Shown: one piece after another, positions 21,059 to 37,243 of the stretch
Numbering within the stretch: position 1 is the stretch's first letter
Layout: every line of letters starts with the position of its first letter
Assembly (NCBI GenBank): GCA_036244995.1
Contig: BTTF01000001.1
Location: 1 to 53,862 of the forward strand
Direction of reading: 5' to 3'
Length of the DNA stretch: 53,862 nucleotides
From: a bacterium
Lineage (GTDB): Bacteria > Nitrospirota > Thermodesulfovibrionia > Thermodesulfovibrionales > JdFR-85
The notes under the pieces: model-generated
What the model was told of the DNA's origin: nothing
Databases searched by the model: none
Seen by the model: the letters and a program-made list of their open reading frames with translations, nothing else
Made by a program: the position numbers and the translations under genes

Positions 21059-21553
21059 GTGAAGGCAAAAGATATTATGGAGCAGGTAAAGGATTATTTA
21101 TCTCCTGACGACACCATCAGGAACGCCGTAAACAAGATGAGAGTTGTGAAGAGAGACGATGGTATAGTTGGCTTGAAAGGTATGATAGTGCTCGACAGCG
21201 AAGGCAACCTGGTCGGAATGGTTTCGGTTAAAGACATACTCAAGGCGATTATACCTTTTTATATGACGATGACGGAACTTGGGGAGTTTACATGGGAGGG
21301 GATGCTTGCGGAGATGACAAAAAAGGTGGCCGACAGGAAGGTGGAGGAGATAATGGTGAAGGATGTAATAACAGTTTCCGGGGATGCCCCGCTCATGGAG
21401 TGTGCCGATCTTATTATCAAACATAATCTCCAGAGGGTTCCTGTATTAAATAAAGACAAGAAAGTCGTTGGCATCATCTACGTGCGGGACCTCTATCATG
21501 CAATTGTAAAAGTTCTCCTGGATGACAAGGGGGAAGGGGTACATAATCTATGA
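21059..21553 (+). CDS. CBS-pair domain protein (module 1)
   Basis: Two CBS motifs (VKAKDIME... and VEEIMVKDVITV...LQRVPVLN...GIIYVRDL). The GTG start at 21059 is preferred: GGAGG lies 5 nt upstream and the N-terminus matches copy 2. The stop overlaps the next start (ATGA). Confidence 0.8.
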   Translation: MKAKDIMEQVKDYLSPDDTIRNAVNKMRVVKRDDGIVGLKGMIVLDSEGNLVGMVSVKDILKAIIPFYMTMTELGEFTWEGMLAEMTKKVADRKVEEIMVKDVITVSGDAPLMECADLIIKHNLQRVPVLNKDKKVVGIIYVRDLYHAIVKVLLDDKGEGVHNL

Positions 21554-22920
21554 CTCACGAAGCTGCCGCGGCATCCCAGCCCTTTGTAATGGACACAACC
21601 TTCTGGACTGCCACGACCATATTCCTGATCTCCTACGTTGTCATAATATCGGAAAAGGTACACAAGACAGTGGTTGCAGTCTTCGCTGCATCCCTGATGC
21701 TTGTGTTGAAAATACTTTCGCAGTATGAGGCTTTTCACGTTGAGGAATTAGGGGTGGACTGGAATGTTATCTTCCTGCTTATCGGAATGATGATAATAAT
21801 CAATCTTATGCGACCGACCGGTTTTTTTGAATATATAGCCATTAAAAGTGCAAAGGCCGGCAAGGGTGACCCCATGAGGATAATGATAATATTCGCGATT
21901 ATTACAGCAGTGTTGAGCGCGCTTCTTGACAATGTTACCACAGTGCTCCTGCTTGCCCCGGTCACTCTCCTGATTGCAGATGCCCTTGAGGTTGATCCGA
22001 TTCCGTTCCTGATTGTTGAGGCCATTGCATCCAATATCGGAGGCACTGCCACACTTATCGGTGACCCTCCAAATATCATGATTGCCTCAAAGGCAAAACT
22101 CAATTTCATGGATTTCATATACAATCTTACGCCGATTGTTATCATATTGATGGTTGTCCTTCTCCTTATTATCAAGATAGTCTTTGGCAGGAAACTGAAG
22201 ACCAGAGAAGAACTCAAACAGAGAATAATGCAGATGAACGAAAACGAGGCAATAAAAGACCCGTTAATGCTCAAAAAATCTCTCTTCGTCCTCGCCCTCG
22301 TACTTGTCGGGTTTGTATTTCATGGAACACTTCACCTCCAGCCTGCCACAGTAGCACTCTTCGGTGCAGGCCTGTTGCTTCTGCTGTCGGGCACCCATGA
22401 ACCACACCACGTCCTTGCCGAAGTCGAGTGGCCCACCATATTTTTCTTTATAGGTCTCTTCATACTTGTCGGTGGAGTGGTAAAGGTTGGGCTCATTAAA
22501 TGGATGTCTCTAAAAATGCTCGCCCTGACGCAGGGCAATCTCCTTGCAACAAGCATGATCGTAATGTGGTTCTCTGCCATAGCATCCGCAATCGTTGACA
22601 ATATTCCCTATGTTGCCACCATGAATCCCCTGATAATCGATATGGCAAAACAGATGTGGCCCCAGGAGACAGGACTGGCCCTCCTCAGGCATCCCGACCT
22701 GCTGCCTATCTGGTGGTCATTGGCACTCGGGGCATGTCTTGGGGGTAACGGCTCACCAATTGGCGCCTCAGCAAACGTAATAGTAGTTGGTATGGCCGAG
22801 AAGGCAGGGAAAAAGATATCCTTCATGAGATTTGTTGCATATGGATTCCCGATAATGCTTTTGACTGTCTTTATCTCCATGATATACGTGTGGCTGAGGT
22901 ATTACGTCCTTAAATGGTAA
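21550..22920 (+). CDS. ArsB/NhaD-superfamily (ion transporter superfamily, SLC13/CitMHS-like) permease (module 1)
   Basis: 456 aa with about 10-12 TM helices. LLDNVTTVLLLAPV and GGTATLIGDPPNIMIAS are typical of ArsB/NhaD/YbiR-type permeases. The substrate cannot be inferred. Confidence 0.75.
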   Translation: MTHEAAAASQPFVMDTTFWTATTIFLISYVVIISEKVHKTVVAVFAASLMLVLKILSQYEAFHVEELGVDWNVIFLLIGMMIIINLMRPTGFFEYIAIKSAKAGKGDPMRIMIIFAIITAVLSALLDNVTTVLLLAPVTLLIADALEVDPIPFLIVEAIASNIGGTATLIGDPPNIMIASKAKLNFMDFIYNLTPIVIILMVVLLLIIKIVFGRKLKTREELKQRIMQMNENEAIKDPLMLKKSLFVLALVLVGFVFHGTLHLQPATVALFGAGLLLLLSGTHEPHHVLAEVEWPTIFFFIGLFILVGGVVKVGLIKWMSLKMLALTQGNLLATSMIVMWFSAIASAIVDNIPYVATMNPLIIDMAKQMWPQETGLALLRHPDLLPIWWSLALGACLGGNGSPIGASANVIVVGMAEKAGKKISFMRFVAYGFPIMLLTVFISMIYVWLRYYVLKW

Positions 22921-23054
22921 TATCCCGCCATTGATAATCCGGTTAAAATACACGATAAGCTTCAGGGGGGGGGCCTCAACGGTTTGAACTCCTTCCGTCC
23001 TGCCGACGTATAATTTACTTTTAATCTCCTATAAAAATAAAAAATCCCACTTGC

Positions 23055-23111
23055 TTGACTAAGGATTTCCCCTGGCATTATGATACCCTGTATGGTTGCG
23101 TAATGCAATAT
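23055..23111 (+). promoter_or_regulatory. Sigma-70-like promoter plus conserved box, copy 2
   Basis: TTGACT 23055-23060, 18-nt spacer, TATGAT 23079-23084, and the box TTGCGTAATGCAATAT at 23096-23111. The upstream AAAATAAAAAATC(C/G)CCA(C/T)TT stretch is shared with copy 3. Confidence 0.55.
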
Positions 23112-23149
23112 TTGCTGTTTCAGTAAATCACAACCAAATGGAGGGTCAT

Positions 23150-23638
23150 GTGAAGGCGAAAGATATAATGGAACCGGTTAAAGATACCTTGACCCCGGAG
23201 ACCACCCTGAAAGATGCGGTTAACAGGATGAGGGTTGCCGGAAGGGGAGATGGCCGGGCCGGAGCAAAGGGTATGATTGTCCTTGATAATGGGAAGCTTG
23301 CAGGTATTGTCTCAATCAAGGATATCCTTAAGGCTATTATACCATCATACATGACCCTAACCGAACTCGGCGAGTTCACCTGGGACGGGATGCTCGAGGA
23401 GATGGCAAAAAAGGTCTCCGACAAGAAGGTAGAGGAGATCATGACAAGGAATGTGATAACTGTTTCAGAGGACGCCCCGCTCATGGAGTGTGCCGATCAT
23501 GTCGTTAAGTACAACCTCCAGAGGATTCCAGTGCTGAACAGAGATAAGAAGGTAGTTGGTATTATATACGTCCGGGATATCTATTATGCGATTGTCCGGG
23601 CCCTTTTTGACAATTTTGATAAGGAGGAAAAGAGATGA
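23150..23638 (+). CDS. CBS-pair domain protein (module 2)
   Basis: Paralog of 21059-21553, identical at most aligned positions by eye. GTG start at 23150 with GGAGGG 4 nt upstream. ATGA overlap with the next gene. Confidence 0.8.
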   Translation: MKAKDIMEPVKDTLTPETTLKDAVNRMRVAGRGDGRAGAKGMIVLDNGKLAGIVSIKDILKAIIPSYMTLTELGEFTWDGMLEEMAKKVSDKKVEEIMTRNVITVSEDAPLMECADHVVKYNLQRIPVLNRDKKVVGIIYVRDIYYAIVRALFDNFDKEEKR

Positions 23639-25005
23639 CACATGAAGCTGCCACAGCCTCACAGTCTTTTGTTATGGACACAACCTTCTGGACAGCCACT
23701 ATAATATTCCTCCTCGCCTATGCATTAATTATTTCAGAGAAAGTACATAAAACGGTTGTAGCCATCTTTGCTGCAGCCCTGATGATTGTGCTCAAGATAC
23801 TGGAGCAGAAAGAGGCCTTTCATTCTGAAGTGTTAGGTATAGACTGGAATGTCATATTCCTCCTCCTTTCAATGATGATAATAATCAATCTCATGAAACC
23901 AACCGGTTTTTTTGAGTACATTGCCATTAAAAGCGCTAAACTGGGAAAGGGCGAGCCAATGAGGATAATGACCATATTTACAATTGTTACGGCTATCCTG
24001 AGCGCCATTCTTGACAATGTTACCACAGTGCTCCTTATTGCCCCTGTTACCCTGCTCATCGCAGATGCACTTGAGATCGACCCGATACCCTTTTTGATTG
24101 CCGAGGCGCTCGCCTCCAATATAGGCGGCACCGCCACACTAATAGGTGACCCTCCCAATATCATGATAGCCTCAAAGGCACATTTTGATTTCATGGACTT
24201 TATCTATAACCTGACACCTGCAATCATTGTAGTAATGGCTGCCTTCCTCTTTATCCTGAAAATAATGTTCGGCAAGAAGCTCCATGTCAGGCCTGAACTG
24301 AAACAAAGGATATTGGAAATGAATGAAAGAGACGCTATAAAAGACCCGCTTATGCTTAAAAAGTCGCTCTTTGTCCTCTCAATTGTTATAGTTGGTTTTG
24401 TCCTGCATGGCATGTTCAACTATGAACCGGCAACAGTGGCCCTGTTTGGAGCAGGACTTCTACTACTGCTTTCAGGCACTCACGAACCACACAAAGTCCT
24501 TGCCGAGATTGAGTGGCCGACCATATTCTTTTTTATGGGACTCTTTATCATCATCGGGGGTGTCGTCAAGGTCGGGCTTATTAAATGGATGTCCATAGAG
24601 GTGCTTGCAATTACGCATGGAAACATGTTTGCAACGAGCATGCTAATAATGTGGTTTTCTGCCGTTGCCTCTGCCTTTGTAGATAATATTCCCTACGTTG
24701 CAACAATGAATCCCTTAATAATCGATATGGCTCATCAGGTCTGGCCGCACCTTCAGGGCTTAAAACTCCTGCATAATCCTGAACTCATGCCCGTTTGGTG
24801 GTCTCTATCTCTTGGCGCATGTCTTGGGGGTAACGGCACGGCTATCGGGGCATCTGCAAATGTGATTGTAATCGGGCTGGCCGAACGGGCAGGAAAGAAG
24901 ATATCCTTTATAAGGTTTATGGCCTACGGAATGCCCGTTATGATACTAACGGTATTTATATCTACTATTTATGTCTGGCTGAGATACTATATATTAAAGA
25001 TATAG
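23635..25005 (+). CDS. ArsB/NhaD-superfamily permease (module 2)
   Basis: 456 aa, the same length as 21550-22920 and collinear with it. The large majority of residues are identical by eye. Confidence 0.75.
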   Translation: MTHEAATASQSFVMDTTFWTATIIFLLAYALIISEKVHKTVVAIFAAALMIVLKILEQKEAFHSEVLGIDWNVIFLLLSMMIIINLMKPTGFFEYIAIKSAKLGKGEPMRIMTIFTIVTAILSAILDNVTTVLLIAPVTLLIADALEIDPIPFLIAEALASNIGGTATLIGDPPNIMIASKAHFDFMDFIYNLTPAIIVVMAAFLFILKIMFGKKLHVRPELKQRILEMNERDAIKDPLMLKKSLFVLSIVIVGFVLHGMFNYEPATVALFGAGLLLLLSGTHEPHKVLAEIEWPTIFFFMGLFIIIGGVVKVGLIKWMSIEVLAITHGNMFATSMLIMWFSAVASAFVDNIPYVATMNPLIIDMAHQVWPHLQGLKLLHNPELMPVWWSLSLGACLGGNGTAIGASANVIVIGLAERAGKKISFIRFMAYGMPVMILTVFISTIYVWLRYYILKI

Positions 25006-25074
25006 GAAATATCTTGATATCCGGACCTATAACTTCCCTTTAATATCCTATTAAAATAAAAAATCGCCATTTTC

Positions 25075-25130
25075 TTGACATATCTGCCAACAGAAGATTA
25101 TCATATCCTTGCAATTGCGTATTGCAATAT
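25075..25130 (+). promoter_or_regulatory. Sigma-70-like promoter plus conserved box, copy 3 (upstream of the TauE operon)
   Basis: TTGACA 25075-25080, 18-nt spacer, TATCAT 25099-25104, and the box TTGCGTATTGCAATAT at 25115-25130. Extra TTGCAAT half-sites flank it at 25109-25115 and 25136-25142. Confidence 0.55.
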
Positions 25131-25182
25131 TATCGTTGCAATAATCAACAGCACTGAATAGATGAATAAGGAGGCAATATTG

Positions 25183-26148
25183 ATGTCACGCACTTTGCGA
25201 AGGTTTCTCTTCCTTTTTGCAGTAGTGGCTATAGTTACAGGATTTTACAGCATTGCATTCGGTGAAGAACAGATAGTAGAGGTTGCTCAGAACGGAAGCG
25301 CCATTGTTTGGTGGATGTGGCCGGTAATCCTGTTTGTCTTTACCTTTTTTCTCGGTATCCTGGCAGTTGTTGCAGGTGTTGGAGGCGGGGTGCTGTTTGT
25401 TCCTATAGTAAGCAGTTTTTTCCCCTTTAACCTTGATTTTGTAAGAGGTGCCGGCCTGCTGGTGGCCCTTACAGGAGCGCTCTCTGCAGGTCCCGGATTG
25501 CTCAAGCGCGGACTCGCAGATCTCAGACTTGCACTCCCTATGGCACTTATAGCCTCCACATGCTCAATCTTTGGCGCCATGGTCGGCCTTGCACTCCCTA
25601 CGAATGTAGTCCAGACCGCACTTGGGGCCACGATCATCATGATCGTTATCATTATGGCTACAGCCAAGCGCTCGGATTTTCCGGAAGTTAAGCAGGCTGA
25701 TACACTCTCTTCAGTCCTCAGGATAACAGGCGTTTATTATGAGGAGTCTGCCGGCAAGCAGATTAACTGGCAGATTCACAAAACACCCCTTGGTCTCGCA
25801 CTCTTTATAGTAATAGGCTTTATGGCAGGCATGTTCGGCCTCGGTGCCGGATGGGCAAACGTACCCGTCCTTAATCTTCTCCTCGGCGCACCACTGAAAA
25901 TCTCCGTGGCAACGAGCGTATTTCTGCTTTCCATAACTGATACAGCAGCAGCATGGGTATACATTAACAAGGGAGCGGTGCTGCCATTGATTGCAGTCCC
26001 TTCCGTTGCCGGAATGATGCTCGGCACGAGAATAGGTGTTAGAATACTGGCAAGGGCAAAGCCCAAGGCAGTAAAATGGATTGTCGTAACCATTCTCTTC
26101 CTTGCCGGATTCAGAGCACTCTTAAAAGGTCTTGGAATATGGGGGTGA
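25183..26148 (+). CDS. TauE/SafE-family anion exporter-like membrane protein
   Basis: Multi-TM protein with GVGGGVLFVP in the N-terminal half and a repeated G-rich motif (FGLGAGWANVP) in the C-terminal half, typical of TauE/SafE (DUF81). The start is set at the ATG at 25183 (AAGGAGG lies 8 nt upstream). Confidence 0.75.
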   Translation: MSRTLRRFLFLFAVVAIVTGFYSIAFGEEQIVEVAQNGSAIVWWMWPVILFVFTFFLGILAVVAGVGGGVLFVPIVSSFFPFNLDFVRGAGLLVALTGALSAGPGLLKRGLADLRLALPMALIASTCSIFGAMVGLALPTNVVQTALGATIIMIVIIMATAKRSDFPEVKQADTLSSVLRITGVYYEESAGKQINWQIHKTPLGLALFIVIGFMAGMFGLGAGWANVPVLNLLLGAPLKISVATSVFLLSITDTAAAWVYINKGAVLPLIAVPSVAGMMLGTRIGVRILARAKPKAVKWIVVTILFLAGFRALLKGLGIWG

Positions 26149-26154
26149 CAAATT

Positions 26155-26568
26155 ATGAGTAATAAAACGAAGCCATCGGAAGAACAGCTGAAATATGCAT
26201 CCGTCCTCCAAACAATATCCCTTGGGGGGCTGGCGCTCCTGGTCGTCGGGTTTTTTGTTTATTTAAGCGGCATCCTTCCAACCCTGATTCCGGCTTATGA
26301 AATCCCGGAATACTGGGGAATGAGGGTACACGATTTCGTTGAAAAAACAGGAATGCCAACCGGATGGGACTGGGTACCTTTACTTAATCATGGGGATATA
26401 GTAAGTTTTCTGGGAATAATCCTGTTGGCTGCAGGCACACTCGTCTGCTTTGCAGTTATACTTCCTAATTTTATACGCAAAAAAGATACGCCTTTTGTGA
26501 TTATTATCATTGTGCAAATCCTGGTCCTCTTGCTTGCAGCAAGCGGGTTTATTACAGGGGGTCATTAA
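26155..26568 (+). CDS. Small integral membrane protein (DUF1634-like?)
   Basis: 137 aa with 3-4 predicted TM helices, 6 nt downstream of the TauE gene. The family name is uncertain. Confidence 0.5.
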   Translation: MSNKTKPSEEQLKYASVLQTISLGGLALLVVGFFVYLSGILPTLIPAYEIPEYWGMRVHDFVEKTGMPTGWDWVPLLNHGDIVSFLGIILLAAGTLVCFAVILPNFIRKKDTPFVIIIIVQILVLLLAASGFITGGH

Positions 26569-26570
26569 AT

Positions 26571-27407
26571 ATGAATACACTTGATGCGTGCCCGGATATA
26601 AGGCTTGAGAGACTCCTCTTATGTACAGACGGTTCGGAATTCAGCGAAGGTGCTATCAGGGAGGCTATAAGCATTGCAAAAAGATGCAACAGCAAACTGT
26701 ATGTCATCTCTGTAGTGGAAGTAAACCCTGAATTGGAGGTGTATGCCCCCGGACTTGCAGAAAAGATAGAAGAAAATACAAGAACACACCTCGATGACAT
26801 AAAGGAAAGGGCTGAAAAAGAGGGGGTTACTTGTGAAAAAATAATACACAAAGGCGAGAAGACTTACAGCTACATAGTTAAGGAGACGTCCAGACTAAAG
26901 GCTGACCTGATCATAATGGGCAGACACGGCAGGACAGGCATTAAAAGACTAATGATGGGAAGCGTTACCGCAAGGGTCATTGGACAGACTGCATGCAATG
27001 TGCTTGTTGTGCCAAGGGCGGCAGTCTTTAAGTGTAAAAAGATACTGATTGCTACAGATGGCTCGGAATTCAGCGAGAAAGCAGTTCATGAGGCCCTCGA
27101 TATTGCTGCGGCGTGTGAGAGTGAGGTTGTTATCGTATCGGTGGCTTCAAGCGACTCCGAAATCAAGGAAGCAGAGACATTTGTCCAGGAGGCCCGTAAA
27201 ACGGCCGAGAAAAAGGGGTTAAAAGTTACGACCGGAATACCCGTGGGCACTGTCTATGAGATAATCATTGATGTTGCTGAAAAGGAAAATATTGACCTTA
27301 TCGTTGTTGGAAGCCACGGCAGAACAGGACTTAAGAGGCTATTGATGGGAAGTGTAGCAGAAAGGGTTATCGGTTATGCCTCCTGTACGGTATTGGTAGT
27401 CAAGTAA
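26571..27407 (+). CDS. Tandem universal stress protein (2 x UspA domain)
   Basis: 278 aa. Two USP domains, each ending with the ATP-binding-type motif G(R/S)HGRTG(I/L)KRL(M/L)MGSV...VL(V)V. Confidence 0.85.
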   Translation: MNTLDACPDIRLERLLLCTDGSEFSEGAIREAISIAKRCNSKLYVISVVEVNPELEVYAPGLAEKIEENTRTHLDDIKERAEKEGVTCEKIIHKGEKTYSYIVKETSRLKADLIIMGRHGRTGIKRLMMGSVTARVIGQTACNVLVVPRAAVFKCKKILIATDGSEFSEKAVHEALDIAAACESEVVIVSVASSDSEIKEAETFVQEARKTAEKKGLKVTTGIPVGTVYEIIIDVAEKENIDLIVVGSHGRTGLKRLLMGSVAERVIGYASCTVLVVK

Positions 27408-27427: not shown

Positions 27428-28786
27428 TTATTCTTCCATGTCATATCTCTTAATCTTTCTCCAGAGGGATACCCTGTCTATTCCAAGCACCTGGGCTGCC
27501 TTTGACTTATTGCCACCAAACTCTTTCAGCACCCATTGTATGTATGCCTTCTCCTGATCTTCAAGGGATGGGACTTTCCCTCCACGCTTCCTGAACGTCC
27601 TGATACTCAATTCCCTGAGATCATCAGGGAGATGTAACGTTTCAAGGGTTTTCCCTTTAGAGAGTGCGATCCCCCTCTCGATGATATTCTCCAACTCCCT
27701 TACATTGCCCGGAAAGTTGTAACTGTTAAGCACGCCTGACATATCATCGGAAATATCAGACACATCCTTTCCCATGATCGAAGAGTATTTCCTGAGGAAG
27801 TGATAGCACAGCAACGGGATATCTCCCTTTCTCTCCGAGAGTGGCGGCAGGTGGAGCGTTACTACATTCAGACGGTAATAAAGGTCCTGCCTGAACTCAC
27901 CGCTCTCGATAACTTCCTGTATATTCCTGTTGGTGGCTGCAATGAACCTCACATCCACCTTTACCGGTTCAGTGCCCCCAACACGCTGGTATTCTCTTTC
28001 CTGTACAACCCTCAGGAGTTTTACCTGCATGGATGGGCTCATTTCCGTAATTTCGTCCAGAAACAAAGTACCCTTGCTTGCCACCTCGATAAGACCTTTT
28101 TTAAGGAATGTTGCACCTGTAAATGCCCCCTTCTCATGTCCAAAAAGCTCGTTTACGAGGAGCCCCCCTGAAAAAGCCCCGCAGTTGATGGCAATAAAGG
28201 GGCCTTCGGACCTCCTGCTGTAAAGGTGGACATACCTTGCCACCAGTTCCTTACCCGTTCCGCTTTCACCCGTGATAAGGATATTACAGTCGGTTGGCGC
28301 AACATCCCTGGCTGTATCCAGTATCCTGAGCATCCGGGGGTCCTGGGTGATTATCCTCACCCTGTCCGTGATGTTCTCAAGACTCTCCCTGAGCTGCCTG
28401 TTCTCTTTCTTGAGCCTTACCTTTTCCGAGGCCTCCCTTACGATCTTTCTTACCTCATCCAGCTTAAAGGGCTTTGCTATATAATGGTAAGCCCCGTGTT
28501 TCATTGCCTCTATGGCAGTCTCAACCGTGGCATATCCAGTAATCATTATTACCTCTAAATCCGGGTTGGATTCCTTGCATCTTTTGAGTATCTGCATTCC
28601 GTCAACCTTCTCCATCTTCAGGTCGGTCAGAACAATGTCAAACTCATGTCTGCTTAATAATTTTAAGGCGTTCTGCCCGTTTAAGGTTGTTTTTATCTCG
28701 TAACCTTCCTTGTTCAAGACATGCTCAAGGTTCTTTATGGCTATCTTTTCGTCATCAACAATCAGAAGTTTTATTCTGTTTTCCAT
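27428..28786 (-). CDS. Sigma-54-dependent response regulator (NtrC family), apparently orphaned
   Basis: REC domain (LLIVDDE...LTDLKM), AAA+ domain with GESGTGKE and the GAFTGA loop (EKGAFTGA), and a C-terminal Fis-type HTH (KSKAAQVLGIDRVSLWRKIK). Confidence 0.9.
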   Translation of the reverse strand: MENRIKLLIVDDEKIAIKNLEHVLNKEGYEIKTTLNGQNALKLLSRHEFDIVLTDLKMEKVDGMQILKRCKESNPDLEVIMITGYATVETAIEAMKHGAYHYIAKPFKLDEVRKIVREASEKVRLKKENRQLRESLENITDRVRIITQDPRMLRILDTARDVAPTDCNILITGESGTGKELVARYVHLYSRRSEGPFIAINCGAFSGGLLVNELFGHEKGAFTGATFLKKGLIEVASKGTLFLDEITEMSPSMQVKLLRVVQEREYQRVGGTEPVKVDVRFIAATNRNIQEVIESGEFRQDLYYRLNVVTLHLPPLSERKGDIPLLCYHFLRKYSSIMGKDVSDISDDMSGVLNSYNFPGNVRELENIIERGIALSKGKTLETLHLPDDLRELSIRTFRKRGGKVPSLEDQEKAYIQWVLKEFGGNKSKAAQVLGIDRVSLWRKIKRYDMEE

Positions 28787-29224
28787 CCTCGTCTCCTTTC
28801 AGTGGGAGTTTTATGATAAAGGTTGTTCCTGCACCCGACCGGCTTTTCAGGTCAATAGTCCCGTTGTGCTGCTTTATAATCTCATGACTGACATACAGCC
28901 CGAGCCCCGTACCCATTCCAACATCCCTTGTTGTGAAAAACGGGTCAAATATCTTGTTGATTATCTCCTCGGGGATACCCCTGCCTGTATCCGAAACCCG
29001 GACCTCAACCTCTTTTTTGTCCCTGTTCTCTCCGGCCGTTATTATGATCTTGCCTTCCACTCCCTTATTACTATTAAATTGACGAATATGATTGAGGCGA
29101 TGAAAAGTATAAGCAGAAAGCTTCCTGTATATCCCAGCTTTATCTTCTGCAGTATACTCCTGTTCTTAACAAACATAAAATATAGTAACATTCGATATTG
29201 CAAATTGCAACTATAGCGCTGCAT
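28755..29224 (-). pseudogene. Decayed sensor histidine kinase (TM segment plus the HATPase_c end only)
   Basis: Two short ORFs in different frames. ORF 29224-29042 encodes one TM helix. ORF 29060-28755 encodes only the G1/G2 ATP-binding part (VSDTGRGIP...[17 protein letters not shown]...GTTFIIKLP), paralogous to the C-terminus of the kinase at 29337-30896. No DHp/H-box fits into the 470 nt available. Confidence 0.65.
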
Positions 29225-29336: not shown

Positions 29337-30896
29337 GTGTCGATAAAAAAGAAAATAATTCTCAGTTTCTTTATCAGTTTTTCAATCATTGCAACACTTG
29401 CCGTAGCAGCTTATCTGGACTTTCGCGAGACCAGAACCGAGTTTAAATATCTTGAACTTGCAGAAAGCATCAGGGGTAAGACCTTACAGTTAAGAAGGCA
29501 TGAAAAAAACTTCTTTCTTTACGGAGACAGCAAGGAAATTGATCTTATTCACAGATATATAGGAGAGATTGAAGCGCTTATTAAAGATGCCAAGCCTTAT
29601 ACCCGCAACGACAATCTTGATAAATTGAATGTCAAACTGAAGGAATTCAGTCTGCAGTTTGAAAACATTACCGCCATGGCTTCCGGTTTCCATGAAGAGT
29701 TGGCAAGCCTAAAGCCAAAAAAACCGTCATATCTTTTTTTAATACCCATAATTAAAGCCACTTTTCTGGAACACCCCCTGCAAAATGCACAACTCCTGAA
29801 GCGATTTTTTTATATATCCAAAAAAGATGACTATATTACATTCCTCAAAAGACTGGGGAATGAGATTAAAGATATGAGGAAGACCGGCGAAAAAATTATC
29901 GGGATATCTAAAGAACTGGATAGGGGTGCCAGGGAAAGGGTGCAGAATATTATTAATGTTACCAAGGTAGCTGTTCTGGTATTCTTGCCTATATCCTTCC
30001 TGATCGGGTTTGTATCGCTATTTTATATCAGCCAGAACATAGTTAACAGGTTGAAGAAACTGATGGAGACGATTGAAAAAAGTGGTGCCGGTTTCTTTTC
30101 TCCCATGCCTTTTCCGGCAGGCCATGACGAGGTCAGTACATTAATAAGGACATATAATAATATGGCAGAGGCATTACATGCGCGGGAGGAACTACTCAGG
30201 ACAAAAGAAGAAGAGTTGATTCAGAGTAAAAAGCTTGCAGCCATAGGCACCCTTGCATCCGGAGTGGCTCACGAATTAAACAACCCCCTGAATAACATTC
30301 ATATATCGGCACAGATATTGGCAAAGGAGATGGGTGAGGACTGTACGGGTATTATAGAGGAGACAGTTGATGATATATTGAGTCAGACTTTCCGGGTAAA
30401 GAAAATAGTTGCAAATCTGCTGGATTTTGCAAGGTCAAAGGAGCCGGACTTTCAAGAAATAAACATCGTTGATATTATACAAAAGACATATGCTCAGGCA
30501 CAGAAAATAACGGCATTCAAGGATATAGAGTTTGTATTAGAATCTCCGCCTGAAGTCTTCCTCCAGGCGGACCAGGTCCAGATTGAACGGGTCTTCGTCA
30601 ATCTCTTCACCAACGCAGCTGATGCCATGGAGGGCAAAGGAAAACTTCATGTGAAGGTTTTTCCCGAAGAAGATACGGTTAAAATAGAGGTGACGGATAC
30701 AGGTAACGGGATACCTCCCGAGGTTAAAGACAAGATTTTTGACCCCTTCTTTACAACCAGGGACAGGGGAACCGGTCTCGGCCTGTCCATAGTATATAAC
30801 ATCATCAAAAACCATGGCGGCAGTATAACCGTGGAGAGCACGGCAGGAGAAGGGACCACATTCAGAATCTTCCTGCCGAGGTACAGAGAGGTTTAA
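29337..30896 (+). CDS. Sensor histidine kinase with an extracytoplasmic helical sensor domain
   Basis: 519 aa. TM1, about 170 aa of helical region ([13 protein letters not shown]), TM2, a linker, H-box [12 protein letters not shown], then the N, G1 and G2 boxes (DTGNGIP, GTGLGLS). GTG start. Confidence 0.85.
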
Positions 30897-32234
30897 ATGA
30901 GCATTAAAATCTTTATTGCAGAAGACGAAGAGATAACGCTGAAACATCTGATGTATGCCCTTGGAAACGAGGGATATACAGTTTCCGGGGCAAAGGATGG
31001 TCTTGAGGCATGGCAGAAAATCGAAAAGGAGCATTTTGATATTGTTATTACGGATATAAAAATGCCCGGACTTGACGGCATGAGCCTGCTTGAAAAGATT
31101 AAAGAAAAAGGGATGGAGACGGATGTGATCGTTATTACGGGTTTCGGGAGCATTGATTCAGCAGTGGAGGCCATGAAAAAAGGGGCATATGATTATATAA
31201 CCAAACCCTTTAATCTGGATGAATTATTATTAAGGGTCAGAAAGATATGTGAAAAAAAAAGCCTTGAAAGAGAAAACATAGCGCTGAAGACCTCACTCGG
31301 TATAGATAAAGACCTCCCTGCGTTTATCGCAAAAAGCAAGAAGATGAAAGATGTGATTAATGTTATCAGGAGCATAACTGCGTCTGATTGCAACGTTATC
31401 ATCACAGGAGAAAGCGGTGTTGGCAAGGGACTTGTTGCAAAGCTTATTCACTATACAGGGACACGGGTAAACAGGCCTTTCCTTGCAATCAACTGTGCAA
31501 TCTTTACAGAGGAACTCCTTGCCAGTGAACTTTTCGGCCATGAACGGGGGGCCTTCACAGGGGCGGTAACCACAAAAAAGGGTCTTTTGGAGATTGCAGA
31601 TACAGGGACTCTTTTTCTCGACGAGATAGCCGAGATGTCACCGTCCCTGCAGGCAAAGCTCCTGAAGGTCATCGAGGACAGGGAGTTTTTCAGGGTTGGG
31701 GGCACAAGACCTGTGAGGGTGGATGTCAGGTTCATTGCTGCCACAAACCAGGATATAAACGGACTTGTCACCAAAGGCACTTTCAGAAAGGATCTGTTCT
31801 ACAGGCTCAATGTAATGGATATCTTTATACCCCCATTGCGGGAAAGGAAGGAGGATATCCTGCCCCTGAGCAAATACTTCCTTGAAAAACACGCCAAAAA
31901 GGCCAGGAAAGATATCAAGGGGTTTGCAAGGGAGACAATGGAGATACTGAAATCATACAGCTACCCTGGAAATGTCAGGGAGTTGGAAAATATTATCGAA
32001 AGGGCAGTGATTCTGGAACAAACATCGCTTATCCAGCCTAAAAACCTCCCGGTTACCATGCAGATGTTCCAGATTGAAACGATAGATCCGAGCAGGTTAA
32101 GGACAATTGACGAGCTTAACAGGGAATATGCCTTGAAGATTCTCGATCACCTTGAAGGGAACAAGACACGGGCTGCTAAAATGCTGGGTATATCAAGAAC
32201 CAGCCTCTGGCGGATTCTCAGAGAAAAAGAGTAA
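30897..32234 (+). CDS. Sigma-54-dependent response regulator (NtrC family)
   Basis: REC (IFIAEDEE...ITDIKMPG), AAA+ (GESGVGKG, ERGAFTGA) and a Fis HTH (KTRAAKMLGISRTSLWRIL). The start codon abuts the kinase stop (TAAATG). Confidence 0.9.
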   Translation: MSIKIFIAEDEEITLKHLMYALGNEGYTVSGAKDGLEAWQKIEKEHFDIVITDIKMPGLDGMSLLEKIKEKGMETDVIVITGFGSIDSAVEAMKKGAYDYITKPFNLDELLLRVRKICEKKSLERENIALKTSLGIDKDLPAFIAKSKKMKDVINVIRSITASDCNVIITGESGVGKGLVAKLIHYTGTRVNRPFLAINCAIFTEELLASELFGHERGAFTGAVTTKKGLLEIADTGTLFLDEIAEMSPSLQAKLLKVIEDREFFRVGGTRPVRVDVRFIAATNQDINGLVTKGTFRKDLFYRLNVMDIFIPPLRERKEDILPLSKYFLEKHAKKARKDIKGFARETMEILKSYSYPGNVRELENIIERAVILEQTSLIQPKNLPVTMQMFQIETIDPSRLRTIDELNREYALKILDHLEGNKTRAAKMLGISRTSLWRILREKE

Positions 32235-32241
32235 AGCTCAA

Positions 32242-32510
32242 AAAAACTTCTTTTAGCCTCTCGATTTCTTCACGATTTCTCACGATTTTTAACAAACTAA
32301 AGAATATCTCTCCTCTGTTTCTTATCCTGATGCTATCTTGAAGGCATCGTGAATCTTAAAAACTTCTGTAGCCTCACGATTTAAAGGAATCAAGCAGTTT
32401 CTTTCTGTTTCAACTCCAACCCTCCAACCCTCCAACCCTTCATATCAGGTTCTCCAGCCCAAACAGGACAGCTTCCGGCTTCTCCAACCAAAACCGTTCA
32501 GTACCGTTCA
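32242..32510. repeat. Repeat-rich intergenic region (several direct-repeat families)
   Basis: A 25/26-nt repeat AAAAACTTCT(T)TAGCCTC(T/A)CGATTT occurs at 32242-32267 and 32358-32382. Three 10-bp-phased (T/C)CACGATTT(C/T)T units lie at 32261-32290. CTCCAACC x3 lies at 32414-32437. ACCGTTCA x2 (10-bp phase) lies at 32493-32510. Confidence 0.8.
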
Positions 32511-32575
32511 AAAATGAAACACCAGACACCATGTCTCCTCCTTAAAATATCCTTTAAAATCAAGCTATTAGCGGT

Positions 32576-32591
32576 TGGCATCAGATTTGAT
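32576..32591 (+). promoter_or_regulatory. Candidate sigma-54 (-24/-12) promoter
   Basis: TGGCAT-CAGAT-TTGAT compared with the consensus TGGCAC-N5-TTGCW. The GG-to-TTG spacing is correct and the -12 C is replaced by A. It lies 48 nt upstream of the ATG at 32638 and directly downstream of a sigma-54 activator gene. Confidence 0.5.
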
Positions 32592-32637: not shown

Positions 32638-33120
32638 ATGAAAGGCAGGGTTTTATTCGTAACAAAGGAAGATGAGAATTTCAGGGATGGGTTCTCATAT
32701 GTAATGGAGCTGTCAAAAATAGTAAAGGGAGGTATATACATCCTGTTTTACCACGATAAAAACCTTATTAAGAGATTTGAAGATGATATGGCAGCGGCTG
32801 CCCTTGCCGAGGCAGGCGAGTTTGAGACTGCGAAACAGATTATTCACGAAGAAGAAGTCCTTACCAGGGCTGATGCAAGCAAGAAGGTTGCTTTGCTGAG
32901 GCAGGAATGCTCTGACCCTGAAATGCTTGTGGATTACCGCCTCGCAACAGGCGATCTCGTCTCTGCAATAAGGGGTGTCCTGCAGGATAAAGCAAGTATC
33001 GAGATGGTAATACTCAGCCCCTCACTAATGGACAGTGGCAAGGCTATCAGCCTGAAGAAATTAAGAAGGTATATAACAAGACCTATTGTGACTATGTCAA
33101 GACCTGCAAGTGCCCAATAG
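32638..33120 (+). CDS. Hypothetical protein, weakly USP/adenine-nucleotide-alpha-hydrolase-like, carrying an AEAGEFETA motif
   Basis: Start at the ATG at 32638 (AAGGAG lies 7 nt upstream). MKGRVLFVT... and ...VILSP resemble USP-fold beta strands. Residues LIKRFEDDMAAAALAEAGEFETAKQIIHEE (32764-32853) recur in the next ORF. Confidence 0.6.
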   Translation: MKGRVLFVTKEDENFRDGFSYVMELSKIVKGGIYILFYHDKNLIKRFEDDMAAAALAEAGEFETAKQIIHEEEVLTRADASKKVALLRQECSDPEMLVDYRLATGDLVSAIRGVLQDKASIEMVILSPSLMDSGKAISLKKLRRYITRPIVTMSRPASAQ

Positions 33121-33144
33121 GTATCAAGAAAGGAGGAACAAAAA

Positions 33145-33342
33145 ATGAAGGTCTTAAGAAGAATGTTAAAGAGATTTGAAGGTGAGATGGCGGCTGTAGC
33201 ATTTGCAGAAGCCGGTGAATTTGAGACTGCAAGAGAAATTCTGAAGAGTTCCGTGAGTGAAGAAGTATCCAATGGCAACAGCGTTTTTGACAGTGAGGAA
33301 AGCCAGGGATTGAATATCTTAAAGCACGCTGAAAGCAAGTAA
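33145..33342 (+). CDS. 65-aa protein sharing the AEAGEFETA motif
   Basis: AGGAGG lies upstream. MLKRFEGEMAAVAFAEAGEFETAREILKSS (33163-33252) is about 30 aa paralogous to the preceding gene. The remainder is an acidic/polar tail. Confidence 0.55.
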   Translation: MKVLRRMLKRFEGEMAAVAFAEAGEFETAREILKSSVSEEVSNGNSVFDSEESQGLNILKHAESK

Positions 33343-33357
33343 AAGGAGGCAGTAAAA

Positions 33358-34143
33358 ATGGGCATGTTCAATGTATTGTTGACCCTCGGGGTTGTAGGTG
33401 GTTTCCTTTCAGGTCTGCTGGGACTTGGAGGGGCAATTATCATGATCCCTCTCATGTTAACTGTTCCGAAGATACTGGGGGTAGGCGCACTTTCGATGAA
33501 AGCGGTTGCCGGACTATCCATGATTCAGGTGGTATTTGCATCTTTATCCGGTGTTGCCCGACATAGAAAAAACAAGTTTGTCAGCATGAAGCTTATATAT
33601 ACACTGGGAATAGCCATGGCGATTGGTTCGGGGTTCGGCTCCATAATCTCAAAGTATATGAGCAACCAGGTGTTGATGATTGCGTTTGGCTTTATAGCGG
33701 TGATAGCAGCCTTGATGATGTTCATACCACCGAGGTCTGAGGGTTCTGAAAGTATTACCAATCCTGATGACATACAGTTTAACAAACCACTTGCCGCTGT
33801 ACTTGGGGTAATAATCGGAAGTCTGGCGGGTATGGTTGGCGCCGGAGGCGGGTTTATATTGATCCCGGTGATGATTTACGTCCTTAAAATCCCTATAAGA
33901 ATCACTATAGGTACCAGCCTTGGAGTAGTACTCATCGGCGCAGTTATAGGCGCTATCGGCAAGATGGTTACAGGACAGGTAGATTGGTTACTTGCGTTGG
34001 CTCTCATTATCAGCTCGGTCCCATCCGCCCAGTTAGGCAGTCTTGTGAGCAAGAAAACCCCGGCGCTGATTCTGAGATACTCACTCACTCTCCTGATAAT
34101 TTTAACAAGTGTTGAAATATGGTATAAGATTATCGTGGTATAA
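33358..34143 (+). CDS. TauE/SafE-family membrane protein (second copy in the window)
   Basis: 261 aa with 7-8 TM helices. GLGGAIIMIP and GAGGGFILIP are the duplicated TauE/DUF81 signature. Confidence 0.8.
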   Translation: MGMFNVLLTLGVVGGFLSGLLGLGGAIIMIPLMLTVPKILGVGALSMKAVAGLSMIQVVFASLSGVARHRKNKFVSMKLIYTLGIAMAIGSGFGSIISKYMSNQVLMIAFGFIAVIAALMMFIPPRSEGSESITNPDDIQFNKPLAAVLGVIIGSLAGMVGAGGGFILIPVMIYVLKIPIRITIGTSLGVVLIGAVIGAIGKMVTGQVDWLLALALIISSVPSAQLGSLVSKKTPALILRYSLTLLIILTSVEIWYKIIVV

Positions 34144-34176
34144 ATTACGCTCACTCCACTCCACCCCGTCAAGAGG

Positions 34177-34210
34177 AACACACAGAGGTGAACGCCTCTG
34201 TGTGTTTTTT
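34177..34210 (+). terminator. Strong rho-independent terminator
   Basis: AACACACAGAGG-TGAACG-CCTCTGTGTGTT (12-bp stem) runs directly into a T run; the TTTTTT at 34205-34210 includes the last two stem positions. Confidence 0.85.
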
Positions 34211-34299: not shown

Positions 34300-35196
34300 A
34301 TGGAAAAGCGTTCAAAAATACTGATTCTTGATAACTCAAAAAATACGGAAAACCTGTTAACTTTTGCAATCCAGTGGGCAGACCTGATAAATGCATCCAT
34401 AAAGGTTATCCGGGTTATAGATGAAAAGGTTATCAAGAACACCACTATGGCAATTGGCGCCGTTGGCACTATTGCCCGAATGATCAAGGATGATTTCATA
34501 AAAGAGGCCGGCGAACAGATCAAAACCCTGTCCGAAAGATACGGTGTTAACGTCTTGCTGAACATAGAGGTTATAGTGGGCAATACCCTGGAGGAGATTA
34601 CCCGGGCTATAGATAAAGCTGAAGCTGATTTTTTAATCCTGACCCCTGCGCTTAAAGGCCCCCTGGGAAGCATTGCATCGGAAGTTGTTGGATACAGCAA
34701 AAACAACTGTATTGTCCTGCCCACGGGAGTTCACTATTTGAAGTGGGACAGAGTTCTACTTGCAACCGACTGTTCAGACAAGGCAGAGAGTGCCACGGAA
34801 ATGGCTATAGAGATTGCCGAAAGGTTCAAGGGCAGGCTCTTTATCCTGTCGGTGGTTACTTCTAATGAGGAAGTCCAGATACATGCACCTGCACTCCTCG
34901 ATAAAATGGCTGACGAAAGGAAAGGGATGGTAACAGAGATAGTGAATCAGGCCCGGAAGCGAGGAGTATATGCAGAAGGGATAGTAAAGGATGGCACAAT
35001 TTCCAATATCCTGATTGACCTCAATAGAACCATACGCCCTGATATAACCATTATGGGCAGCGAGAGCAGAACAGGGTTAAACAGAGTCTTTATGGGAAGC
35101 GTCGTTGGAAGTATAATCAACAAGGTTGACCATCCGATCCTCGTAATCAAAAAACCCTTTATATTTAAAAACGATCAGAGAGCAAGGCAAGACTAA
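34300..35196 (+). CDS. Tandem universal stress protein (2 x UspA-like domain)
   Basis: 298 aa. The second domain is canonical (RVLLATDCS...GSESRTGLNRVFMGSVVGSII...PILVI). The first domain is divergent. Confidence 0.8.
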   Translation: MEKRSKILILDNSKNTENLLTFAIQWADLINASIKVIRVIDEKVIKNTTMAIGAVGTIARMIKDDFIKEAGEQIKTLSERYGVNVLLNIEVIVGNTLEEITRAIDKAEADFLILTPALKGPLGSIASEVVGYSKNNCIVLPTGVHYLKWDRVLLATDCSDKAESATEMAIEIAERFKGRLFILSVVTSNEEVQIHAPALLDKMADERKGMVTEIVNQARKRGVYAEGIVKDGTISNILIDLNRTIRPDITIMGSESRTGLNRVFMGSVVGSIINKVDHPILVIKKPFIFKNDQRARQD

Positions 35197-35228: not shown

Positions 35229-36578
35229 GTGAAAAACGAATATACATCCAGAAAGCTGTCACCACACCAACTTCTTGTCTTCGGGTTTACAGGCATGATA
35301 CTGCTGGGAACCGCTCTCCTCATGCTTCCCTATTCGACAACACAGGGGATTACTGTAACCGATGCCCTTTTCACCTCCACATCTGCTGTCTGCGTCACAG
35401 GACTGATAGTAAAAAATACGCTGCTTGATTTCACGCCATTCGGCAAGGGGGTCATCCTCCTGCTTATTCAGATCGGGGGACTGGGCTACATGTCAATGGC
35501 AACATTTCTGGCCCTCCTGATCGGCAGGAAGATCGGTCTCTCCGAGCGAATTCTTATAAAGGAATCCCTGAATATAGGAACCCTTGAAGGTATTATCAGG
35601 TTTATGAAAGGGATGCTCCTCTTTGTGTTTTTGGCGGAAGGCACCGGGGCCATACTTTTAACCCTGAGGTTTCTGAAGGATTTCCCTTTAAAGGAGTCCG
35701 TCTTTCAAGGTATATTCCATTCCGTCTCTGCTTTTAATAATGCCGGATTCAGCCTTTTTCAGGACAGCCTGATACGCTTCAGAGGTGATATTGTTGTAAA
35801 TCTTATTATTATGAGCCTTATTGTTCTTGGAGGAATAGGTTTTCTGGTCGTTGATGATCTTTACGGATGGGTGAAAAAGAGGCAGAAAAAACTGATGCTT
35901 CACACACTCATCGTCCTCATGTCAACAGCCTTTTTGATTATTGTCGGCGCCTTTCTGTTCTATTTTAATGAGAGGAACTACTTCTTTGCACATTCAGGTC
36001 TGAGCAGTCTTGAAACCGTCACCACATCCATGTTTGCCTCGGTTACTGCAAGAACGGCGGGATTTAACACAATCGATTACTCCGTTCTTCAGCCTGCAAC
36101 CATTTTTCTCACCATCATCCTGATGCTCATAGGGGCTTCACCGGGAAGCACAGGCGGCGGCATAAAAACCACGACGGTTACTGTTGTGATTATGAATCTA
36201 TGGTGTACAATAAAGGGGAGAAAGGATACGGTTATGTTCAAGAGACGGGTGCCGGAGGCACTGATATCGAGATCTTTTGTTGTCCTTGCCCTTGCAGTGA
36301 TCTTTATAAATATCATAACCCTGGTAATCATCGATATAGAGCATACAGGGTTTCAGCAGACCATGTTTGAGGTGGTTTCGGCTTTTGGAACAGTGGGGCT
36401 GTCAACCGGTGACGGAGGGGCAAGGAGTTTTTGTGCAACATTTTCTGATCTCTCAAAGATTATAATAATATTCACAATGCTTGCCGGAAGGCTTGGGCCC
36501 TTAACACTCTTTATGGCCCTGCTCGGCCAGAGAGAAGAGCGAATCCGCTATCCGGAAGGGAGGATCATGATAGGATGA
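35229..36578 (+). CDS. trkH: TrkH/KtrB-family K+ transporter membrane subunit
   Basis: 449 aa with repeated M1-P-M2 units and selectivity-filter-like glycines (TSAVCVTGL, NNAGFS, RTAGFNT, FGTVGLSTG). GTG start. Confidence 0.85.
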   Translation: MKNEYTSRKLSPHQLLVFGFTGMILLGTALLMLPYSTTQGITVTDALFTSTSAVCVTGLIVKNTLLDFTPFGKGVILLLIQIGGLGYMSMATFLALLIGRKIGLSERILIKESLNIGTLEGIIRFMKGMLLFVFLAEGTGAILLTLRFLKDFPLKESVFQGIFHSVSAFNNAGFSLFQDSLIRFRGDIVVNLIIMSLIVLGGIGFLVVDDLYGWVKKRQKKLMLHTLIVLMSTAFLIIVGAFLFYFNERNYFFAHSGLSSLETVTTSMFASVTARTAGFNTIDYSVLQPATIFLTIILMLIGASPGSTGGGIKTTTVTVVIMNLWCTIKGRKDTVMFKRRVPEALISRSFVVLALAVIFINIITLVIIDIEHTGFQQTMFEVVSAFGTVGLSTGDGGARSFCATFSDLSKIIIIFTMLAGRLGPLTLFMALLGQREERIRYPEGRIMIG

Positions 36579-37243
36579 AAAAACAATTTGCAGTAATCGG
36601 GCTTGGGAGGTTTGGCTCGGCAGTGGCGCTGACCCTCTCTGAAAGCAACTGTGACGTAATAGTAATAGACAGAAACGAGAATAAGATAAAGGCAATCGCA
36701 GACCATGTAACCCTTGCAATACAGATGAATGCAATAGATGAGGCTGCATTGAAGGAGGCAGGCGTACAGGGTGTGGATGTGGCAGTGGTGAGTATAGGAG
36801 AAAATGTTGAGGCGAGTATCCTTGCGGTTATGATACTCAAGGAGATGGGCATCAAGGAGATTATAGCAAAGGCCGTAAATGACCTTCACGGAAGAGTTCT
36901 TGCCAACCTCGGTGTCGACAGGGTTGTACACCCTGAAAGGGATATGGCACAGAGGGTTGCCCGCAGTTTGATAAAACCCCAATTCCTTGAGCATATAGAG
37001 CTCTCTCCTGAATACAGCATTATTGAACTGCCGGCACCGAAGTCCCTGTGGGGCAAGAGTATAAAAAATACCAACCTCCGGGCGGAATACGGCATAAACA
37101 TAATTGCAATAAAAAAAAGATATACGATTAATGAGACGGAGAAAGAGACCTGGAACATCAACCCCTTGCCGACGGATGTGATTAAAAAAGATGATGTTCT
37201 GGTCGTCCTTGGTACAGACAGAGATATAGAAAGGCTGAGGTAA
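36575..37243 (+). CDS. trkA: TrkA/KtrA-family K+ uptake regulatory subunit (RCK domain)
   Basis: 222 aa. Rossmann motif VIGLGRFG, then TrkA-N and TrkA-C domains. It overlaps the trkH stop by 4 nt. Confidence 0.85.
   Translation: MKKQFAVIGLGRFGSAVALTLSESNCDVIVIDRNENKIKAIADHVTLAIQMNAIDEAALKEAGVQGVDVAVVSIGENVEASILAVMILKEMGIKEIIAKAVNDLHGRVLANLGVDRVVHPERDMAQRVARSLIKPQFLEHIELSPEYSIIELPAPKSLWGKSIKNTNLRAEYGINIIAIKKRYTINETEKETWNINPLPTDVIKKDDVLVVLGTDRDIERLR

Follow-up and report, generated by a model that had tools for sequence, protein, structure and literature searches.

The genomic stretch analysed here, hereafter the window, comprises 53,862 nucleotides of contig BTTF01000001.1 (assembly GCA_036244995.1) from a bacterium of the Thermodesulfovibrionia (Nitrospirota; JdFR-85). 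At 32638-34143 it carries a three-gene cassette, directly downstream of the genes of a sensor histidine kinase (HK) and a sigma-54-dependent response regulator. Gene 1 encodes a protein with a predicted universal stress protein (USP) fold, gene 2 a protein of 65 amino acids (aa) that shares a predicted helical hairpin motif with gene 1, and gene 3 a membrane transporter of TauE/SafE type. The assembly is of hydrothermal-vent origin, and proteins identical to those of the window bear the source name MNBD_NITROSPIRAE03. All features marked by a first-pass annotation, which had been made from the sequence alone, were recovered in place or within a few bases. The locus is laid out as follows.

29337-30896, + strand: sensor HK with two transmembrane (TM) segments and the domains HAMP, HisKA and HATPase_c (Pfam)
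30897-32234, + strand: sigma-54-dependent response regulator of NtrC type, with REC, AAA+ (with GAFTGA) and HTH_8 domains (Pfam)
32496-32520, + strand: predicted enhancer (activator-binding site) GTTCA-N5-GTTCA-N4-TGAAAC (comparative, footprint)
32558-32570, + strand: putative integration host factor (IHF)-like site AATCAAGCTATTA, pattern WATCAANNNNTTR (comparative)
32576-32590, + strand: predicted sigma-54 -24/-12 element TGGCAT-N5-TTGA (comparative)
32638-33120, + strand: gene 1, 160-aa USP-fold protein with hairpin motif (family alignment, AlphaFold2 model, Foldseek)
33145-33342, + strand: gene 2, 65-aa stand-alone hairpin protein (homologues, dN/dS, synteny)
33358-34143, + strand: gene 3, TauE/SafE (TSUP family) membrane transporter of 261 aa (Pfam PF01925)
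34173-34210, + strand: intrinsic terminator-like hairpin of 17 pairs, followed by a T-run (sequence)
34300-35196, + strand: tandem USP with two USP domains (Pfam Usp, E=3.3e-27, two stretches)

The regulator matches Pfam Sigma54_activat with E=5e-66 and the GAFTGA loop can be read in its translation; neighbourhood look-ups of related loci place an HK upstream in relatives as well. A spacer of 403 nt lies between the regulator gene and gene 1. For gene 1 the list of open reading frames (ORFs) gives a TTG start at 32608; since homologues align from MKGRVLFVTK we used the ATG at 32638, which is preceded by GGAGAAGGAG, the stop being at 33120. Gene 2 has its own Shine-Dalgarno sequence, and all three cassette genes have a good one. 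The third gene had been proposed to be of TauE/SafE type, which is supported by its match to PF01925 (E=3.8e-47; 161.4 bits against a cut-off of 32.6; profile positions 2-235 of 237), and the strong terminator reported behind it corresponds to the hairpin at 34173-34210.

Gene 1 and gene 2

Homologues of gene 1 (about 160 aa; 49 matches in the homologue search) were aligned, and the protein was modelled with AlphaFold2. The model has a predicted local distance difference test (pLDDT) value of 78 and the element order E-H-E-H-H-E-H-E-H-E (E, strand; H, helix), and thus predicts the alpha/beta fold of USPs, a five-stranded parallel sheet with four helices. A Foldseek search of the PDB with this model returned USP-family structures as all of its top 18 matches, the best being PH0823 (2dum), TeaD (3hgm) and L. 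plantarum UspA (3s3t) with E about 1e-5 and TM-score about 0.6, which substantiates the USP likeness noted in the first pass. No Pfam family was matched by gene 1 at E<=1, the gathering score of Usp (PF00582) not being reached; a precomputed PF00582 match exists on just one gene-1 homologue (P0074), and a PDB sequence search with the gene-1 profile gave no meaningful match. Direct reading of the alignment showed that the nucleotide-binding signature G-2x-G-9x-G(S/T) after strand 4 is absent in the gene-1 family, which at this place has an invariant S127-P128-(S)-L130 (VILSPSLMDSGK). Gene 1 is filed as a divergent USP-fold protein that is not of the ATP-binding type.

Genes 1 and 2 align by BLASTP with 18 identical and 25 positive residues out of 29 (E=1e-11), and comparison of the two family alignments by hhalign gives a probability of 98.5% (E=1.5e-15) over 33 columns, so that the shared block of about 30 residues seen initially is well founded. 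The motif occupies aa 43-72 of gene 1 (nt 32764-32853) and aa 4-36 of gene 2 (nt 33154-33252); a six-frame motif scan of the window found no third copy beyond these two. In the gene-1 model the block is a predicted helix-loop-helix after strand 2 (helix 43-55, loop 56-61, helix 62-90). Since F47, E48, D49, M51, A53, A55, A57 and G60 are invariant or nearly so throughout the gene-1 family, the block is an integral part of gene 1 and no insertion. It is also the part of the model with the lowest confidence (pLDDT 54-57), which would fit a surface element in need of a partner.

The resemblance extends to the DNA, as the first-pass annotation pointed out: 59 of 90 nucleotides (66%) are identical between 32764-32853 and 33163-33252. 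By codon position the identities are 22/30, 25/30 and 12/30 and, because only 12 of the 30 third positions agree, the likeness of the DNA is a by-product of amino-acid conservation. The same figures rule out both a recent duplication or gene conversion as its source and an RNA or DNA element behind the conservation of the block. The proposal that the small ORF is a stand-alone copy of a segment inserted in its neighbour has to be abandoned: the block is integral to the 160-aa family, it also exists as an ancient module of its own, and the third positions have diverged.

Full-length homologues of gene 2 with 61-94% identity are found in related assemblies, together with many more distant ones. 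Against two relatives the ratio of non-synonymous to synonymous substitution rates (dN/dS) is 0.12-0.14, with dS at 0.29-0.40, and on this evidence gene 2 is a real conserved gene under purifying selection. Its product has an acidic tail and ends in GLNILKHAESK. Neither Pfam nor NCBIfam has a family that gene 1 or gene 2 matches above cut-off; gene 2 matches TPR_14 with E=0.045 and 14.9 bits, below the cut-off of 23.5.

Conservation of the cassette

A census of one genome per species yielded 59 loci (designated L and a number) in addition to the window, with 54 gene-1 homologues. The genomes are almost all metagenome-assembled genomes (MAGs) of Thermodesulfovibrionia/Nitrospirota, a few being labelled Deltaproteobacteria, Thermodesulfobacteriota or Deferribacteres. 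In 48 of the 54 cases the gene-1 homologue is immediately followed by a small ORF with the motif which, together with the dN/dS of gene 2, bears out that the 65-aa ORF is conserved in relatives. TauE follows within 2.5 kb downstream of the gene-1 homologue in 42/43 cases with contigs of sufficient length, a tandem USP comes after TauE in 39/41, and a homologue of the sigma-54 regulator is found on the same strand at most 1.5 kb upstream of the gene-1 homologue in 32/42. Co-occurrence of the motif with TauE and sigma-54 activators in other genomes, a check called for in the first pass, was observed. Look-ups that started from distant homologues of either protein led to the same neighbourhood of HK, sigma-54 response regulator, motif proteins, TauE and USP. 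The cassette is widely conserved in sulfate-reducer-like Nitrospirota; the conserved unit, as judged from these neighbourhoods, is larger than three genes and has the tandem USP as its last gene.

The copies of the motif in gene 1 and gene 2, of which there are 38 distinct pairs, change in parallel in some clades, with E replaced by Q in both (L019) or T by A in both (L016/L017). Variants of the cassette in relatives add a two-TM protein of about 80 aa, or proteins with one or two hairpins before a USP-like domain. At four independent places (L003, L038, L073/74 and L075/76) a 666-aa receiver-AAA-Lon protease stands beside motif proteins. The protease genes (L003 1491-3491, L038 1167-3170, L073 7388-9388, L075 4615-6615) are 62-75% identical among loci, and the proteins have the same domain make-up as DVU3303 of Desulfovibrio vulgaris. 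Neither a receiver-Lon gene near the cassette nor the gene for the TM protein of about 80 aa is present in the window.

A paralogous module, which we call type B, was also encountered, in which a gene-1 homologue (35-42% identity) is directly followed by a TauE of about 305 aa, and which lacks the small hairpin ORF (L003 13527-15764, L027 2811-4251, L029 2982-4455, L062 674-2082). In L003 and L007 it comes with an Alph_Pro_TM (PF09608) protein as well. The type B promoter has ATGC as its -12 half and a different upstream site (TGTTCATATTCTTAAC).

Promoter architecture

The -24/-12 element TGGCATCAGATTTG is located at 32576-32589. Its pattern has three matches in the window where 1.5 are expected by chance, a count which by itself is not significant, and the promoters were for that matter evaluated by comparison. 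The set consists of 53 distinct promoters of gene-1 homologues (34-100% protein identity), aligned on the -24/-12 element. TGGCAY-N5-TTG sits 29-70 nt upstream of the gene-1 homologue in these promoters, with a median of 40 nt to the start codon. The enhancer pattern ends 52-56 nt upstream of the -24 half in 42/53 with the loose and 34/53 with the strict form (background 0.05 per kb), and the IHF-like pattern WATCAANNNNTTR ends 4-6 nt upstream of it in 32/53 (background 0.14 per kb); overall the backgrounds of the promoter patterns are 0.05-0.18 per kb. The palindrome at 32496-32520 is the sole exact copy of the enhancer in the window. In the phylogenetic footprint the promoter blocks are conserved among close relatives and the rest of the spacer varies.

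The predicted layout is a classic one, with enhancer, bending site and -24/-12 element. The regulator has the AAA+ domain and GAFTGA loop of a sigma-54 activator, a candidate site upstream of the promoter and an IHF-like site in between, as would be expected of the cognate activator. Dependence of the promoter on rpoN and on the adjacent regulator is strongly suggested by this comparison, and the view that the genes form one sigma-54-type unit downstream of the HK and activator pair agrees with the layout found in the 53 promoters.

Other repeats occur in and near the spacer. Four copies of CTCACGATTT lie at 32258-32382, and a 25-nt direct repeat with a spacing of 115 nt contains two of them; this set is partly conserved in L018 and L015. 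Three tandem CTCCAACC units form a variable octamer array at 32414-32442. The 3' end of the regulator gene contains, at 32066-32080, a copy of the activator palindrome with one mismatch (GTTCCAGATTGAAAC). The main site is about 440 nt further downstream, and the copy may be a distal site or have arisen by chance.

The hairpin family

The consensus of the motif is FE-x-x-MAA-x-AFAEAGE-x-ETA. A profile of the small proteins retrieved 1067 representatives of 50%-identity clusters at E<=1e-3, of which 125 at E<=1e-10, and at 90% identity the motif carriers amount to at least 3333 clusters. All carriers are unnamed or called 'hypothetical' and all come from environmental assemblies; the cluster members of ten small homologues were inspected and consisted solely of entries named 'hypothetical protein' from such assemblies. 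The hairpin measures about 33 residues; among 25 diverse proteins 13 of its columns are invariant, and the E, G and E of its turn are nearly invariant across more than 1000 clusters.

Several architectures were distinguished: stand-alone proteins 53-66 aa long, usually ending in a basic tail (RPRKQLRAPG, for example); proteins of about 100 aa with two copies; proteins with one to four copies N-terminal to a divergent USP-like domain; the internal copy of the gene-1 type; and, in Thermoleophilia, a receiver domain with a C-terminal copy. The window proteins carry a single copy, where relatives may have 2-4. The receiver type was seen in Thermoleophilia MAGs as a single-domain response regulator with the motif at its C-terminus (NFEDSMAAAAFAESGEFETATDIL; L068 6614-7156, L069 6614-7156, L072 2847-3389), encoded in a cluster rich in two-component genes.

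For the motif a helix-turn-helix hairpin is predicted at pLDDT 54-77, and the model of a two-copy protein (pLDDT 63) likewise consists of helix-turn(AGE)-helix hairpins. Foldseek with that two-repeat model returned nothing below E=0.69. A PDB sequence search with the motif profile gave nothing meaningful either; over the PDB searches with this profile, the gene-1 profile and TauE, vimentin and designed repeat proteins matched only at E>=0.002 and CopG at E=0.42. Pfam matches of motif relatives to TPR, PPR and Usp are all sub-threshold, and the names 'cellobiose-specific PTS IIA', 'hemerythrin' and 'thioredoxin-like regulator' that JGI gives to some homologues were rejected as sub-threshold artefacts. 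Pfam, NCBIfam and the PDB hold no entry for the motif and the literature search found no mention of it, a full-text search with the motif string giving one unrelated paper; the initial impression that it belongs to no named family therefore holds. The most fitting description is that of a predicted TPR-like hairpin, so far undescribed and under unusually tight sequence constraint, which accompanies USP-fold domains. By its distribution it is an ancient free-standing module rather than a recent insert.

Functional interpretation

A system of similar make-up is known from D. vulgaris Hildenborough, where DVU3303 (receiver-Lon), DVU3304 (HK) and DVU3305 (sigma-54 response regulator) form a three-component general stress system (PMC3333781). 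The DVU3305 target, DVU3302-3298, comprises the genes of three hypothetical proteins, one membrane protein and one UspA protein (PMC3333781); high pH, heat shock and stationary phase induce it (PMC3333781 with supplement). Rajeev et al. reported orthologues of the regulator in Thermodesulfovibrio (PMC3333781). Trotter et al. (2023) describe DVU3299 as a putative anion transporter which is required under chlorate stress, and show that DVU3303, DVU3304 and DVU3305 share a fitness pattern (PMC10102598). Kazakov et al. (2015) described nine D. vulgaris sigma-54 operons that encode TSUP or PSE transporters with unknown substrates (PMC4641369).

We lean, with some reserve, towards the reading that the locus is a two-component, sigma-54-dependent transporter cassette with hairpin-docked accessory proteins of USP type, the Thermodesulfovibrionia counterpart of the D. 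vulgaris system. Sequence and comparison provide the conserved cassette, the sigma-54-type promoter with its candidate activator site, the predicted USP fold of gene 1, the shared hairpin and the selection on gene 2. On top of these we infer the biochemical role of the hairpin, a docking or interaction module, because of its modular distribution, its low pLDDT in gene 1 and the parallel substitutions in some clades; its spread over stand-alone, repeat, USP-like and receiver architectures is typical of an interaction module. The kinase would sense an extracytoplasmic stress or anion signal and phosphorylate the regulator, which would then bind the GTTCA/TGAAAC site and activate sigma-54 RNA polymerase. 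In this way an anion transporter would be made together with cytoplasmic accessory proteins of USP type. For the TauE substrate, sulfite or another oxyanion is the best guess that family annotations and the DVU3299 chlorate phenotype allow. The USP-fold proteins may tune the transporter, by analogy with TeaD and TeaABC, and the shared hairpin could be the docking element that links the small protein and the USP-fold proteins to each other or to a common partner.

A number of observations weigh against this reading. Gene 2 is not obligatory, given that six of the 54 gene-1 homologues lack an adjacent small motif ORF, and some stand-alone motif proteins (L010, L073) occur beside a regulator or receiver-Lon with no TauE alongside, which points to the signalling side. 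In most loci the -12 half of the promoter reads TTGA or TTGG, with a minority having TTGC, although the -24 half and the spacing are conserved; the window has the dinucleotide GA where the consensus (TGGCAC-N5-TTGCW) has GC. In the window a terminator-like hairpin separates TauE from the tandem USP. A PDB sequence search with TauE found no sequence relative. As to D. vulgaris, the published DVU3305 site is of the type GTTGC-N4-GCAAC, from which the GTTCA/TGAAAC palindrome of the window differs; orthology with DVU3298-3305 is presumed from gene order and sizes, as is a motif in DVU3300-3302.

The hairpin proteins might alternatively act on the signalling side, as feedback partners, adaptors or substrates of the kinase, the regulator or receiver-Lon, which would result in regulated proteolysis or anti-activation comparable to that of PspA on PspF or of small proteins on sensor kinases. 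We regard this as rather unlikely, albeit well worth considering. A 57-aa motif protein stands alone beside the sigma-54 regulator in L010 and one of 84 aa beside the receiver-Lon protease only in L073; the four independent places where receiver-Lon adjoins motif proteins, the fusion of the motif to a receiver domain in Thermoleophilia and the cofitness above 0.9 of DVU3303 (receiver-Lon), DVU3304 and DVU3305 (PMC10102598) all suggest a link with signalling, and the small proteins have variable, mostly basic tails that look disordered, as for degrons or tethers. However, the cassette of the window has no receiver-Lon gene near it, and the motif is most often and most closely associated with USP-like domains, often fused to it, and with TauE.

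A bolder elaboration, which must be called doubtful, has the hairpin as a dedicated docking module whose stand-alone copies compete with or bridge the hairpins of USP-fold proteins and are turned over by receiver-Lon, giving a proteolysis-timed switch that gates the TSUP transporter under stress. If true, this would amount to a widespread circuit of signalling and transport in anaerobic sulfur bacteria, and Lon would be activated by phosphorylation.

It appears improbable that the hairpin serves to bind a ligand or metal instead of docking, and so senses a cation or small molecule for the USP-like domain. The acidic turn E-A-G-E-x-E, with its nearly invariant E, G and E, and the enrichment of histidines in second repeats, often AEAGEHE(H/Y/K)A, would fit such a role, but the conserved acidic residues sit in a short turn without a pocket-forming arrangement, no known metal-site pattern was matched, there is no structural hit, and the idea is drawn from composition alone. 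That gene 2 is a chance or decaying ORF, or that the resemblance reflects a recent local duplication, gene conversion or an element at the nucleic-acid level, can practically be dismissed since, for all its shortness, its missing Pfam match and the 66% DNA identity of the two segments, this is already contradicted by the low dN/dS at appreciable dS, the diverged third positions, the adjacency to gene 1 in 48 of 54 loci down to 34% gene-1 identity and the thousands of clusters that carry the motif.

In sulfate reducers and sulfur disproportionators TSUP/TauE and USP rank with the most abundant gene families that still lack an explanation; sigma-54 operons encoding them abound in Desulfovibrio, none with an assigned substrate or accessory role. 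The motif provides a signature that links 'hypothetical' small proteins with divergent USP-fold proteins and, in certain lineages, with a receiver domain. The locus also gives a regulatory map, consisting of the candidate activator palindrome, the IHF-like site and the -24/-12 element, and is a concrete handle on the hypothetical proteins of a widespread system of stress and transport. If the motif is present in DVU3300-3302, D. vulgaris genetics (the DVU3299 chlorate phenotype and the cofitness of DVU3303-3305) can be used to assign a function; if not, the hairpin family still merits a database entry.

Neighbouring genes

The tandem USP at 34300-35196, behind the terminator in the window, may be transcribed separately. 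Directly after it follow the potassium-uptake genes trkH/trkA (35229-37243). In D. vulgaris the kdp operon for potassium uptake is among the targets of the DVU3305 regulator (PMC3333781), perhaps a parallel, perhaps a coincidence.

Upstream of the HK gene, on the - strand at 28755-29224, lie a C-terminal HATPase fragment of 101 aa (28755-29060) and an out-of-frame, TM-like ORF of 60 aa (29042-29224). In relatives this position is taken by a full divergent kinase of about 513 aa (L015 1967-3505), beside a second sigma-54 regulator (window 27428-28786, - strand). The remnant at 28755-29224 looks like a truncated or pseudogenised kinase.

A second transporter block is found further upstream, at 21047-27407.

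21047-22920 and 23096-25005: two tandem pairs of a CBS protein and a CitMHS/ArsB-type transporter
25162-26148: second TauE, 328 aa
26156-26568: membrane ORF, about 136 aa
26571-27407: second tandem USP

In L007 and L010, too, a TauE of about 322 aa is paired with a membrane protein of 136 aa, next to a sigma-54 regulator. Just before the second TauE gene (about 25070-25145) are three TTGCAAT repeats and a sigma-70-like TTGACA / TATCAT pair. TGGCAY-N5-TTG was sought before the tandem USP and before the second TauE at 25162, and was found before neither.

Comparison with known systems

The motif recalls the hairpins of TPR and PPR proteins in its predicted helix-turn-helix of about 30-34 residues with small residues (A, G) at packing and turn positions, in occurring singly or in 2-4 tandem copies, and in the sub-threshold matches of motif proteins to TPR_14, TPR_4 and PPR. 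It differs in that the motif is far more constrained in sequence and most motif proteins have a single copy; no motif match reaches the Pfam cut-off and no structural match is significant.

TeaD of Halomonas elongata (3hgm), which belongs to the TeaABC TRAP transporter, is like gene 1 a cytoplasmic protein of USP fold encoded in an operon with a secondary transporter, and was the second-best structural match of the gene-1 model (E=2e-5, TM-score 0.57-0.62, 11% identity). TeaD binds ATP, whereas gene 1 lacks the glycine signature; TeaD in turn lacks the FAEAGE hairpin, and the transporter family is a different one.

In Acinetobacter and Cupriavidus the pdo-sqr-tauE sulfide-detoxification operon is controlled by FisR and includes a putative sulfite/thiosulfate exporter of the TauE family (PMC7315123). 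As in the cassette, a sigma-54 activator drives an operon with a TauE-family gene. FisR differs in being a one-component persulfide sensor, and its operon encodes the enzymes PDO and SQR and no USP-like or hairpin proteins.

The closest parallel in overall architecture is that of D. vulgaris where, as in the window, an HK and a sigma-54 response regulator are encoded beside a sigma-54 operon of small hypothetical proteins, a membrane anion transporter and a UspA protein. The loci L075, L077 and L013 match the order and sizes of the DVU genes: a motif protein, a protein of motif and USP domain of about 156 aa, a TM protein of about 80 aa, TauE and a tandem USP. Peak coordinates in the supplement leave less than 420 nt for DVU3302, from which we infer that it must be a small ORF. 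Receiver-Lon is represented by DVU3303 in D. vulgaris and is present in several relatives of the window (L003, L038, L073-L076) but not in the window itself, which further differs from the DVU system in lacking the gene for the TM protein of about 80 aa, in its short TauE (261 aa) and in having as first gene a USP-fold protein with an internal hairpin. The suggestion that the locus is an undescribed module can be upheld for the hairpin family; the kind of cassette has been documented in D. vulgaris (PMC3333781, PMC10102598), its small proteins being only 'hypothetical' there. The cassette is thus a member of a known, poorly understood kind with an undescribed hairpin family, and no new mechanism has been shown. 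By its architecture it would be the Thermodesulfovibrionia counterpart of DVU3303-3305 and DVU3302-3298.

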